The notes beneath the pieces were generated by a model. It was not told where the DNA came from and did not search any database. It saw only the letters and a program-made list of their open reading frames with translations. Below, one piece after another: positions 28,010 through 30,511 of a DNA stretch of 64,000 nucleotides. The DNA comes from Candidatus Aenigmatarchaeota archaeon (GTDB lineage Archaea; Aenigmatarchaeota; Aenigmatarchaeia; CG10238-14; SCSR01): contig JACPAE010000001.1 of NCBI GenBank assembly GCA_016181005.1, positions 179,885-243,884 on the forward strand. The letters are read 5' to 3'. The translations under genes were made by a program, and so were the position numbers. Position 1 is the stretch's first letter. Every line of letters starts with the position of its first letter.

Positions 28010-30168
28010 CTAAATTTCCGGTTTAGGCACGTCCTCATTCAAGCCTTTCCTCTTCCTTATTGATTTAACTGTATCTTCAAACAAGTCCTTAGGCACCCGT
28101 TCAAATGTAGTTTCAACCAAAGAGTAGAATCCCCTGCCGCTTGTGGCCGACTTGAGCGAAGCGTCAAAACCAAATATGTCGCTGACAGGAATCTTGGCGC
28201 TGATTACGGAAGCCCCCCGTTCGTCCTTCATGTCCAGAATCTGCCCCCTCCGATTCTCAATCTCCTTTATAGCGTCACCGATAAGTTCCGTAGGAATGTC
28301 TACCCTAATAACCTGCTTCGGCTCCAATAACTGCGCGCCAGCCGCAAGCATAGCCTGCCTTATAGCCCACCTTACCGCAGGCCTTATCTGCCCCTCGCCT
28401 CTGTGCACAGGGTCTTCGTGAAGTTCCGCGTCCATCAGCTTTACTTTCAATCTCATGCATGGCTCTCTTGCCAGCGGCCCGTCTTCCATAACGTCAGTAA
28501 AAGCATCCTTGACCATCTCTATAATCTCGTTCAAATACTGGATGCCCTTTGTCATGTCTATCAAAACATTTCTGTTGTGCATCAAAAGTATGTTTCTGGC
28601 CTCGTCATAGTCCATCCCGGTTTTCTTGAATTTCTGGAAAAGCTCTATGTTCTTTCTTTTAATCTCGCCCTCGCTTGGAAGGTCGCCCGCAAGCATAGCC
28701 TGATAAATCCCATCCTCCAAAGGTTCTACTATGATGTCGAATTTGTTGTGCTTGTTCGGGGACTTGCCTTCTATTTCAGGGGATTTGTCAAACAAAGCCT
28801 CCCGGTAAACGACAATTGGCTTGGACATATCTACATCAATTCCCAAGTCCCTCAGTTTGTGCTCAACTTTTATTTCCAGATGCAGCTCTCCAAGGCCGGA
28901 AACAAGGTATTCCCCAGTCTCTTGATTAATTTTGACAACAAGCGTCGGGTCCTCCCTGCCAAGCCTCTTCAGTATGTCGACCAGCTTCGGCAGCTCCATG
29001 GGATTCTTCGGCTCGATGGACTTGGTGACAACAGGCTCGAATATGTGCTTTATTTCCTCGAAAGGCTCAATCACTTTTCCAGCGTCTGTTATGGTCTCTC
29101 CTGTGAATGCATCAGGTATGCCGACGATGCCGACAATATTTCCTGCGGTGATTTCATCGACAGGTATTCTTTGTATCCCCCTGTAAACAACTACTTGTTG
29201 CAGTTTCTGCGTTTTATGCTGAGTTATTAAATAGACGTCCTTGCCCTTGAAAATTTTTCCGGAGAATATTCTTCCTGCAGCGACAAAGCCAACATGAGGA
29301 TCCGGAACCATCTTCGTCATTATCATCGCAAGGGTTCCATCAGGATCGCATGCCAGCATGTCTTTTCCAACATCGTTGTTCAAATCACCCTTCCATATTT
29401 TCGGAATTCTGTATTTCTGCGCATCTAAAGGATTAGGCAAGTGTTTTACAATCATGTCGAGCACCACTTGGTGCATCGGGGCTTTTTTCGCAAGCTCGTC
29501 TTCTTTTCCTTGGATTGTCAAATCGATTATTTCCTTGAATGTCATTCTGGTCTTCTTCATGTAAGGGATCGATATTGCCCAGCGCCTGAAAGCTGATCCA
29601 AACGCTACTGTGCCATCCATTACATTCACAAGCCATTTCTGCTTGTACTCCTCCGGCGCGTACTTTTGGATATAAATGTTGACGTCGCGTATAACTTCCT
29701 CGAACCTTTGCATCATCTGCTCTGGAGTAAGCTTGAGTTCACGAATGAATCTGTCAACTTTGTTGACGAATAAAACTGGCTTTACATACTCTCTCAACGC
29801 TTGACGAAGAACTGTCTCTGTCTGTGGCATTATTCCTTCCACTGGATCTATAAGGACAATAGTTCCATCAACTGCTCGCATTGCGCGTGTGACATCACCT
29901 CCAAAGTCAACGTGACCCGGAGTATCTACAAGATTAATCAAGTAGTCCTTGCCGTCATATTCATGAACCATTGAAACATTAGCACCATAAACTGTGAGTT
30001 CTCTCTTTCTTTCCTCTGGATCGAACCATGTGACCATCGCTTTTCCAGCCATCTCCTCAGCAATCATGCCGGCGCCGGCCATTAAATTGTCAGTTAATGT
30101 GGTTTTTCCATGGTGTACAAACCCGTAGATATAGCGATAAACTAAATCTATTGCGAGGACGTAGCCAT
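28010..30168 (-). CDS. fusA: Elongation factor 2 (aEF-2). N-terminus disrupted: the GTP-binding P-loop is encoded upstream of the first in-frame start codon.
   Basis: The 690-aa ORF begins [10 protein letters not shown], but [17 protein letters not shown] (G1 motif) lies in frame upstream with no ATG/GTG/TTG. An ATG at 30166-30168 sits in the -1 frame (MATSSQ*). The C-terminal region HRGEGQIRPAVR matches the EF-2 diphthamide-site region. Confidence 0.85.
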
Positions 30169-30172
30169 GTTC

Positions 30173-30511
30173 CTAATTCTTGCCGGATCCTTCATTGTTT
30201 CTGTGATCCTTTCCGTCATTTCTTTCTTTGCTATGATTTTCACCTACATTCATTGACTTTAGATTCTGATTTAAACTCCAAACCTTATAAGAGTTGTTAA
30301 TTGTAGAATTTAACACATTCATTCTTTCCACCAAATTTAACAAAGATCTTGTAGTTCTCTCACTTCTATTTATTTTTAATTGAACTTCTCTTTTACTTAA
30401 CAATTTCTTCTTTTCGAAGAATTTTATTATATCTGAAAAGTTTACAGAACTTTTCCTTTGAAAAGGATATAATGTATAAAATATATCTAGATTTTCGCTG
30501 CTAAAGTCCAA
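30173..30511 (-). CDS. Hypothetical basic protein inserted between rps7 and fusA. Possible wHTH.
   Basis: 112-aa ORF. Its TAG stop (30173-30175) is in frame with the EF-2 N-terminal coding region. Confidence 0.4.
   Translation of the reverse strand: MDFSSENLDIFYTLYPFQRKSSVNFSDIIKFFEKKKLLSKREVQLKINRSERTTRSLLNLVERMNVLNSTINNSYKVWSLNQNLKSMNVGENHSKERNDGKDHRNNEGSGKN

Follow-up and report, generated by a model that had tools for sequence, protein, structure and literature searches.

A predicted BHB-type intron of 32 nucleotides splits the EF-2 gene of a Candidatus Aenigmatarchaeota archaeon

The analyzed window is a stretch of 64,000 nt from Candidatus Aenigmatarchaeota archaeon (GCA_016181005.1, JACPAE010000001.1, positions 179,885-243,884 of the forward strand). 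The gene order around EF-2 is that of the canonical S12-S7-EF-2-EF-1alpha-S10 operon, and all features of this locus discussed below are located on the minus strand. The EF-2 open reading frame of the window (28010..30082) encodes 690 amino acids and starts with the ATG 30082-30080 (MAGAGMI). Its match to the Pfam profile GTP_EFTU begins only at profile position 40 of 188, the G1 part being missing, which agrees with the preliminary description of an EF-2 starting at MAGAGMI without the G1 motif. The codons of the G1/P-loop were found at 30119-30098. In their frame, no ATG, GTG or TTG occurs 5′ of 30082 as far back as the TAG 30175-30173, as had also been described.

The same TAG terminates an ORF of 112 amino acids (30173..30511) between S7 and EF-2, which has a winged-helix-like sequence without a Pfam match. 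The 3′ tail of this ORF overlaps the EF-2 N-terminal region (exon 1, see below) in a different frame. An intact homolog is present at the same position in the relative L091, and decayed remnants were identified in L004 and L088. The ORF is not part of EF-2.

A second frame is opened by the ATG 30168-30166, which reads MATSSQ followed by a TAG. The offset of −1 to the P-loop frame, claimed in the preliminary description, was confirmed. What had been overlooked is that this frame stays open further in the 5′ direction, up to a TAG immediately before the GTG 30243, and that its translation from about 30243 to 30152 yields a typical archaeal EF-2 N-terminus. Residues 1-31 of the spliced protein described below matched 30243..30151 in a tblastn search. 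A comparison with the 5′ ends of relatives, as had been proposed, showed that the intron-less orthologs P0002, P0003, P0005 and P0007 possess an N-terminus beginning with M(A/T) that matches the product of this second frame. The region 30152..30243 was thus assigned as EF-2 exon 1; it ends with the first two bases (CA) of a His codon. Candidates for the start codon of exon 1 are the GTG 30243-30241, the ATA 30234-30232 and the ATG 30219-30217. The ATA occupies the place of the ancestral ATG and follows the Shine-Dalgarno-like motif AGGTG by 6 nt.

The two parts of the gene are separated by a segment of 32 nt (30120..30151; AUAGAUUUAGUUUAUCGCUAUAUCUACGGGUU). Its removal is the sole excision that restores the ortholog peptide: a single pair of excision points reproduces it, and no other register works. 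Cuts at CA|A and UU|U join CA and U to a His codon. The predicted spliced mRNA junction is …CCUCGCA|UGUACACC…, or in its longer form …GUCCUCGCA|UGUACACCAUGG…. The spliced product aligns without a gap across the junction to the EF-2 of Pyrococcus (PDB 5h7k) and is, around the junction, residue-for-residue identical to the intron-less orthologs of Aenigmarchaeota (84-87% identity). Exon 2 (28010..30119) opens with the U that finishes the His codon, contains the G1/P-loop codons and ends with the stop codon 28012-28010. The ATG 30082-30080 therein encodes an internal Met and does not serve as a start. The first complete codon 3′ of the 5′ splice site is an in-frame UAG (30150-30148).

The excision points coincide exactly with the position predicted from a BHB fold, with a cut after the second bulge nucleotide on both strands. 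This corresponds to the BHB cleavage rule, according to which the cut lies between nucleotides two and three of the bulge (PMC2738675). The central helix is formed by the exonic strand CUCG (30154..30157), located in two Ser codons, and the intronic strand CGGG (30122..30125; CGAG in relatives), with four of four positions paired and one of the pairs being G-U. The MFE fold and the RNAalifold consensus place a 5′ bulge CAA at 30151..30153, with the cut predicted between A30152 and A30151. An inner helix of 5 bp directly adjoins the central helix and is composed of UAGAU (30146..30150) and AUCUA (30126..30130). The 5′ bulge and the inner helix are canonical. At the 3′ splice site, the bulge UUU was assigned to 30119..30121, and the cut is predicted between U30120 and U30119. 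On this side both the MFE fold and the consensus show UU opposite UC, i.e. a 2x2 internal loop, followed by an outer helix of 3 bp. This outer helix is weak, with one contiguous pair by strict counting. The modeled structure therefore fits the relaxed HBh′ class rather than the strict hBHBh′ class. The relaxed form has been described for splicing endonucleases of broad specificity, and such an enzyme would be required here, given the weak outer helix and a 3′ side that is not a clean bulge of 3 nt. Compared with shuffled sequences, the local fold had an unexceptional MFE (z = −1.2).

Five further distinct introns with a length of 31 to 42 nt were found at the same site in relatives (L004, L005/L088, L090, L091 and L092). 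Their loops differ whereas the core is common to all. A pattern scan of metagenomes gave four true matches and three unrelated chance ones (L089, L093, L094). In the alignment of the six same-site introns, 95.5% of the cells were paired, compared to 26-42% when the partner columns were slid, and two base pairs showed compensatory changes, among them changes in the inner helix; the set is small (six sequences) and was partly ascertained with a pattern fixing CAATAG…CTA and TTTGT. The central helix is kept in all six introns, save for one mismatch in L091, and the same helices were recovered independently by RNAalifold. The covariation in these six sequences suggests that the BHB structure has been maintained in evolution.

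The spliced coding sequences of the window, L004, L005 and L003 each comprise 2178 nt with a single stop codon. Among them dN was 0.08-0.21, dS was saturated or 1.8-6, and dN/dS did not exceed 0.07 wherever dS could be estimated. The first 45 codons of EF-2 are likewise conserved, and both exons are open in every carrier. The insertion at the site shared with the window has been retained among lineages with saturation at synonymous sites, where dN remains at 0.09-0.17. The interrupted EF-2 genes are thus under strong purifying selection.

Independent introns in the BHB register were identified at other EF-2 sites in further Aenigmarchaeota and other DPANN archaea (L003/L001, L096, L054, L063, L005 and L095). 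Five introns with lengths of 14-31 nt interrupt the first 110 codons of the EF-2 gene in L005 alone, and one BHB-register intron was found in the S10 gene of L001. Taken over all relatives, the inserts have a length of 14-42 nt, are located at various sites and occur in all phases; in nine of the ten intron families the central helix is paired at four of four positions. The break points cluster in conserved motifs of the G domain. They lie inside the P-loop (between G and K, or between K and T) and in codons adjacent to DxxG, split codons included. A related 31-nt insert between A-runs in L058 (Woesearchaeota) showed no strict BHB register, its best pairing comprising two of four positions, and was not assigned to the BHB introns. 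The presence of introns differs between close relatives. From these data, BHB mini-introns may well be a recurrent and mobile element of protein genes in Aenigmarchaeota and other DPANN archaea, a broader reading that we favor with some reserve. EF-2 mRNAs would then be assembled from two to six exons and S10 would be affected as well, with an in-frame stop early in every intron ending the translation of unspliced RNA. If true, a protein gene with multiple introns would be described for the first time in Archaea, and splicing by EndA and RtcB would be obligatory for the expression of core translation genes and possibly a control point.

Inteins also occur in this part of EF-2. L057 contains a real intein at the neighboring site GK/TT (…FIIHN/TTLTDNLL), and the EF-2 proteins P0011 and P0080 contain inteins. 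For the insert in the window, an intein was rejected, the insert being 32 nt long, frame-shifting and stop-bearing.

The best explanation of the locus, with a probability of about 0.9, is that EF-2 is a two-exon gene split by an archaeal BHB intron of 32 nt. Removal of an intron at the RNA level was not among the explanations offered in the preliminary description. In the proposed mechanism, the primary transcript would fold such that the exonic CUCG pairs with the intronic CGGG to a helix of 4 bp, with the 5′ bulge CA|A on one side, the 3′ site UU|U on the other and the inner hairpin UAGAU/AUCUA behind it. The tRNA splicing endonuclease EndA would cut each strand 2 nt 3′ of the central helix, and the exons would be joined by a ligase of the RtcB type. 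The resulting mature mRNA, …UCC UCG CA|U GUA CAC CAU GGA AAA ACC…, would encode a complete EF-2 of about 725-733 amino acids with an intact G1 motif. On unspliced RNA, ribosomes would halt at once on the UAG directly 3′ of the 5′ splice site. We infer from the sequence that EndA and RtcB act on the EF-2 mRNA in vivo. Two intron-containing tRNA genes with introns of 25 and 39 nt were detected in the window using Rfam, and the organism therefore needs a splicing machinery. Both of these tRNAs were missed by ARAGORN. Genes for EndA and RtcB were not found within the 64-kb window in a Pfam sweep of the ORFs.

The preliminary description had recognized the anomaly and the involvement of a second frame correctly, whereas none of its three mechanisms (a −1 frameshift or assembly indel, a non-canonical initiator, or read-through of the TAG) could be upheld. 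In metagenome-assembled genomes, a disrupted frame is often an error, and either an indel or a chimeric join could be suspected here around 30140-30175. The frame offset, however, results from a structured insertion of 32 nt and not from a slip of 1 nt or in a homopolymer. Two Logan assemblies that are independent and stem from different runs (SRR12113420 and SRR12113431) contain the interrupted EF-2 DNA without any difference, and five assemblies of other projects contain homologous inserts in which compensatory changes are seen. Since the two independent assemblies carry exactly the same sequence, the anomaly is not due to an assembly accident, and the probability of any sequencing or assembly artefact is close to nil. 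Programmed recoding could lead from the exon 1 frame to the P-loop frame either by ribosomal frameshifting of −1 or by bypassing of the 32 nt in the manner of gene 60. It would be consistent with the two frames differing by −1, and the UAG 30150-30148 and the hairpin after the first frame superficially resemble bypass signals. Such recoding is nevertheless very improbable. No slippery heptamer X XXY YYZ is found in 30175-30148, and a frameshift 5′ of the UAG would add about 11 residues to the beta1/P-loop strand that are absent from all orthologs. For a bypass, neither of the candidate take-off codons (UCG and CAA) is matched by a codon before GUACAC, and the conserved His codon arises only from the joined CA and U, which is impossible by hopping. 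Moreover, apart from L058, the inserts of the relatives obey the BHB register at other sites and in all phases. Read-through of the TAG 30175-30173 would join EF-2 to the unrelated small winged-helix-like ORF; the position of this TAG in the exon 2 frame is only a coincidence.

A non-canonical initiator just 5′ of the P-loop would cost the protein its conserved N-terminal stretch of 30 residues. This stretch is plainly encoded by the other frame, and purifying selection acts on it. Alternatively, EF-2 might be made as two polypeptides, i.e. an N-terminal peptide of about 36 amino acids and a large fragment from a non-canonical start in the insert, which would assemble non-covalently. ATA or ATC codons are available in the exon 2 frame 5′ of the P-loop, and split genes are known from reduced genomes of the Nanoarchaeota type. 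The window protein would, however, lack the conserved His, no ribosome-binding signal precedes the second piece, and in relatives the breaks lie within the P-loop or in DxxG-adjacent codons, where such fragments would be unable to rebuild the motif. Such a two-part EF-2 is thus slightly less probable even than recoding. It could further be assumed that the locus is a pseudogene or an allele hit by a short DNA insertion, with a functional EF-2 elsewhere or in other cells. The contigs are derived from metagenomes, and mobile elements have a hot spot in the P-loop region, as indicated by the inteins mentioned above. This explanation is to be regarded as no more probable than recoding, as the remainder of the gene is an intact ORF of 690 codons in the canonical operon, the window contains a single EF-2 copy (tblastn of the spliced protein), three assemblies carry the sequence unchanged, and the same-site insertion has been kept over saturated synonymous sites with exons open in all carriers.

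Further genes of the window were searched for comparable interruptions. A window-wide BHB scan (4-bp central helix, 3-bp helper helix and two-frame fusion) resulted in 573 candidates, mostly ordinary gene junctions, and was rejected as non-specific; it is also blind to short exons such as EF-2 exon 1. In a Pfam sweep of the 78 window ORFs of at least 75 amino acids, no clear case of a second gene split like EF-2 was found. ThrRS was rejected as a mini-intron case, since the break between its editing and catalytic parts looks like a deletion with a frame change of 1 nt, and long tblastn matches were rejected as insertions, since they joined EF-1alpha to EF-2.

Public protein records of interrupted EF-2 genes (690, 685, 675, 635 and 623 amino acids) all lack the P-loop and are truncated by gene callers. 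These annotation errors propagate, because both EF-2 and S10 are routinely used as markers in phylogenomics and in completeness estimates of DPANN genomes.

For protein-coding genes, BHB introns have so far been reported for cbf5 only, and no earlier report for EF-2 was found. Full-text searches of the literature accessible without a journal subscription revealed no BHB intron in EF-2 or in protein genes of DPANN archaea, and no cases other than cbf5 and HVO_1309. A study from 2020 explicitly states that, among archaeal protein-coding genes, only cbf5 has a BHB intron, and papers on EndA from 2018 and 2025 still cite the cbf5 work alone. The gene has been cited as the sole case for more than 20 years. 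An essential and universal translation factor of another superphylum requiring tRNA-type splicing would broaden this picture, and so would the relatives with their several sites and as many as five introns in one gene. These genes could serve as a natural system for studying the gain and loss of such introns, the recognition of an mRNA by the endonuclease without a tRNA body, and the coordination of splicing with coupled transcription and translation.

The closest known system is the intron in the pre-mRNA of cbf5 (pseudouridine synthase) of Crenarchaeota (Watanabe 2002; Yoshinari 2006; Yokobori 2009, PMC2738675). As in EF-2, the cuts are predicted between the second and third bulge nucleotides, and the intron is patchily distributed among relatives, which points to gain and loss. 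The cbf5 intron is removed by the tRNA splicing endonuclease, as is proposed for EF-2. The differences concern the gene, which here is an essential translation GTPase, the host (DPANN/Aenigmarchaeota instead of Crenarchaeota) and the position of the intron inside the P-loop codons, where it splits a conserved His codon. In addition, EF-2 is interrupted at several alternative sites in relatives, with as many as five introns in one gene. Splicing of cbf5 was demonstrated by cDNA and in vitro cleavage, whereas that of EF-2 is deduced.

The BHB introns of archaeal tRNAs and rRNAs (hBHBh′ and the relaxed forms HBh′, hBH and BHL) share with EF-2 the central helix of 4 bp and the position of the cuts, which on either strand lie 2 nt 3′ of this helix, and the EF-2 introns (14-42 nt) lie in a common size range with them. 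The tRNA introns of the window, which are 25 and 39 nt long, depend on the enzyme that is proposed for the EF-2 intron. In contrast to these introns, the host of the EF-2 intron is an mRNA without a tRNA body aiding recognition, the outer helix is weak, and the excision must be exact to the nucleotide to hold the reading frame. The archaeal splicing endonuclease acts on the mRNA of HVO_1309 of Haloferax volcanii (PMC7714728), whose intron is of similar size (46 nt). This BHB intron is located in the 5′-UTR, and the coding sequence is uninterrupted.

Two systems outside the Archaea are comparable in part. The T4 gene 60 bypass resembles the arrangement in EF-2 in that a short untranslated gap, with a hairpin and with a stop codon at the 5′ edge, lies within the coding sequence. 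EF-2, however, lacks matching take-off and landing codons, and its junction codon is assembled from both sides, which is achieved only by a joining of RNA. The unconventional splicing of eukaryotic HAC1/XBP1 mRNA is carried out by the nuclease Ire1 together with tRNA ligase or RtcB. It has in common with the proposed splicing of EF-2 the spliceosome-free, protein-catalyzed excision of a short intron from an mRNA, the altered reading frame and the use of tRNA-splicing ligases, but Ire1 recognizes stem-loops instead of a BHB motif and the process is regulated by stress.

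The EF-2 gene (fusA) of the window can be read as a 690-aa ORF on the minus strand (28010..30082), which begins at the ATG 30082-30080 with the residues MAGAGMI and matches the Pfam profile GTP_EFTU only from position 40 of 188. In agreement with the preliminary description, every usable start lies downstream of the G1/P-loop codons, which are found in an in-frame stretch without ATG, GTG or TTG that runs back to the TAG 30175-30173. This TAG also terminates a 112-aa ORF (30511..30173, minus strand). The overlapping frame reading MATSSQ and a stop from the ATG 30168-30166 is present as noted, but its longer upstream opening, to the GTG 30243, had been overlooked. 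From this GTG the frame encodes the standard archaeal EF-2 N-terminus, as determined by comparison with Pyrococcus EF-2. Since the N-terminus is encoded in the MATSSQ frame, the gene is split over two frames, with the first ~30 codons in one and the remainder in another. A short insert between …ATSS and VHHGKTT parts the two frames. The gene neighbourhood comprises NusA, L30e, S12, S7, EF-2, EF-1alpha, S10 and RNA polymerase subunits, and the nearest EF-2 proteins (84-87% identity) are annotated as Candidatus Aenigmarchaeota (DPANN lineage).

Local RNA folding of this region (minus strand) revealed a motif of the bulge-helix-bulge (BHB) type with a central helix H CUCG/CGGG (30157-30154/30125-30122), a 5′ bulge CAA (30153-30151), an inner helix h′ UAGAU/AUCUA (30150-30146/30130-30126) and the 3′ site UUU (30121-30119). 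The splicing endonuclease cleaves archaeal BHB motifs after the second bulge nucleotide and before the third (PMC2738675), a position applied here as a cut (↓) on both strands, 2 nt 3′ of the 4-bp helix. The predicted cuts CA↓A and UU↓U take out 32 nt (30151-30120) and join CA to U, resulting in the predicted mature message UCC UCG CAU GUA CAC CAU GGA AAA ACC across the junction. By exhaustive enumeration, only one pair of excision points was found to reproduce the ortholog peptide; its central helix is fully paired (4/4) and its inner helix measures 5 bp. The spliced EF-2 aligns without gaps to the solved Pyrococcus EF-2 (5h7k) over the junction and is identical to intron-less Aenigmarchaeota orthologs over a 28-letter stretch there. 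The very first codon past the splice site, in the upstream frame, is a stop codon.

Several database EF-2 proteins are N-terminally truncated, and their contigs show the reason. Introns at the same site were found in the related loci L004 (35 nt) and L005, and in four more (L088, L090, L091, L092) added by a pattern scan of metagenomes. The six distinct same-site sequences are 31-42 nt in length and share the core CUCG CA↓A UAG…CUA CGRG UU↓U with unlike loops. In their alignment, a small sample (n=6) with some columns, though none of the covarying ones, fixed by the search pattern, 95.5% of the cells of 11 core pairs were paired compared to 26-42% with partner columns slid by 1-3 positions, and two pairs had changed in a compensatory manner (A-U to G-C, A-U to U-A). 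RNAalifold independently predicted the same helices and, on the 3′ side, a 2x2 internal loop and a 3-bp outer helix, which would assign the motif to the relaxed HBh′ class and not to the strict hBHBh′ class. Public EF-2 entries of 690, 685, 675, 635 and 623 aa are devoid of the P-loop as a result of gene callers having no model for such introns.

The ancestral EF-2 start position reads ATG GCN AAR AAA GAA ATG, 6-7 nt past GGAGGTG (L003, L001, L007, L010). ATA occupies this position in five related sequences, namely the window (30234-30232), L004, L005, L095 and L096, and is followed by conserved, in-frame codons in all five. The SSH-site intron is present in four of the five; L096 is without it, having an HHG/K-site intron and intron #2 instead. 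ATA may serve as the EF-2 initiator, or the start may have shifted to the ATG 30219 (in the window alternatively the GTG 30243).

An assembly indel, as considered in the preliminary description, is contradicted by two independent Logan assemblies (SRR12113420 and SRR12113431), in which the sequence is identical. The window holds one EF-2 copy, detected as two tblastn pieces meeting at the intron. The intron-free CDSs of the window and three intron-bearing relatives are each 2178 nt long with a single terminal stop; pairwise dN was 0.08-0.21 with dS saturated or 1.8-6, and dN/dS was ≤0.07 wherever dS was estimable. The first 45 EF-2 codons are likewise conserved among intron-bearing relatives. 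The insert is thus neither an artefact nor a pseudogene sign.

Frameshifting, also proposed at first, fails for want of a slippery site and would add ~11 residues to the P-loop, while bypassing finds no matching take-off and landing codons and could not build the split His codon. Read-through of the TAG would join EF-2 to an unrelated small ORF, the preceding 112-aa ORF, of which L091 carries a separate homolog in the corresponding place; this proposal was abandoned. A two-piece EF-2 cannot be reconciled with breaks that fall within the P-loop and within codons. The 112-aa ORF itself, between S7 and EF-2, has a winged-helix-like sequence. L091 contains an intact homolog (36% identity), and the copies in L004 and L088 have decayed and contain stops. 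The final ~24 codons of the ORF share their DNA with EF-2 exon 1, in a different frame.

A screen of 80 DPANN EF-2 loci (species-representative genomes) and the contigs of truncated proteins identified BHB mini-introns at four further positions in or beside the P-loop codons (HHG/K in two registers, GK/T and AH/ID). Two Aenigmarchaeota loci (L003:2928-2960 and L001:2928-2960) contain a 33-nt in-frame intron inside HHG/K (CCAC GG↓A…GUGG AA↓A), set apart by a compensatory G-C to A-U change in the inner helix; in L096 (Aenigmarchaeota, 284-313) a 30-nt intron lies 1 nt beyond that site (CACG GA↓…CGUG AG↓). A 30-nt textbook BHB intron was found at GK/T in Ca. Haiyanarchaeum (L054:2592-2621) and a 31-nt intron at AH/ID in Woesearchaeota (L063:1818-1848). 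L005 (Aenigmarchaeota, JAIYGB010000009.1, GCA_053537075.1) has five inserts of 31, 14, 14, 31 and 15 nt in the first ~110 codons (2575-3010), each with exactly one synonymous register with 4/4 central-helix pairs, and removal of all five yields a perfect EF-2 with a 2178-nt CDS. Its close relative L095 has three of the five, and the combination in L096 is unlike that of L005.

The strict register was obeyed by 9 of 10 independent intron families, for an estimated chance expectation of ~0.02 per register with 1-7 registers per case. The sole exception is a 31-nt insert between A-runs in L058 (~2471-2501), which no strict BHB register fits. All mini-introns examined, including frame-shifting ones and those of 14-15 nt, contain a stop in the frame of the upstream exon, usually within codons 1-5, with an ascertainment bias for in-frame cases. 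These stops may have been selected to end translation of unspliced transcripts. In L057 (1650-1830) a true intein was identified at GK/TT (…ADGFIIHN/TTLTDNLL), and the EF-2 proteins P0011 and P0080 from other DPANN genomes have inteins in the same P-loop region. For inteins and BHB introns alike, the G1 coding region appears to be a hot spot.

The S10 gene of L001 (Aenigmarchaeota, CAYJVM010000017.1) contains a 33-nt in-frame insert with a stop (7059-7091; GUGG AG↓C UUGGA…UCCAG CCAU UU↓A), whose removal restores KTPSGDGTGHG. Since this insert has BHB geometry, the predicted mRNA mini-introns reach beyond EF-2.

Two further genes of the window are unusual. The threonyl-tRNA synthetase (50787-49182, minus strand) is broken into a 115-aa ORF, which matches the archaeal editing-domain profile (137 positions) only over positions 1-92, and a catalytic and anticodon-binding part of 447 aa in another frame with an 80-nt overlap. 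The editing domain seemingly lacks some 20-30 residues, and the break looks like a deletion combined with a frame change of 1 nt and not like a mini-intron that could be removed. A 1427-aa ORF (38132-33849, minus strand) contains RpoB′ and RpoA′, normally separate in archaea, without intervening stop (Rpb2 domains 4-7 at aa 4-594, Rpb1 domains 1-5 at aa 601-1406), the two RNA polymerase subunits being apparently fused.

The window contains two intron-containing tRNA genes on the minus strand, with UAU (57096-56997, intron ~25 nt) and GUA (41124-41014, intron ~39 nt) anticodons; both introns are at or near position 37/38, and ARAGORN detected neither gene in the window. Since one has a canonical and one a relaxed BHB, this organism needs the splicing endonuclease, which does not act with strict selectivity. 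In DPANN, an association of extra-loop endonucleases with disrupted tRNA genes has been described (PMC5829648). A LAGLIDADG homing-endonuclease-like ORF (56923-56243, minus strand) is located directly downstream of the UAU-anticodon tRNA; other LAGLIDADG ORFs were observed in L001 (between S7 and EF-2) and in L005 (upstream of EF-2).

The best-supported model for EF-2 is cleavage at both predicted sites by EndA, the archaeal tRNA splicing endonuclease, and RtcB-type ligation. EndA would cut the pre-mRNA twice, an RtcB-type ligase would then join the exons, and translation of unspliced RNA would abort at the intron stop. In the full-text literature searched, with incomplete coverage, crenarchaeal cbf5 was the only archaeal coding sequence with BHB introns and no prior report for EF-2, S10 or DPANN was found; a BHB intron in a 5′-UTR is described for Haloferax, and a 2020 paper called cbf5 the sole other reported example. 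A more novel lead than the single intron of the window is the occurrence, in relatives, of multiple introns and multiple sites. The EndA/RtcB-type route modelled here from sequence for EF-2 is the same as that of tRNA introns and of the crenarchaeal cbf5 pre-mRNA.
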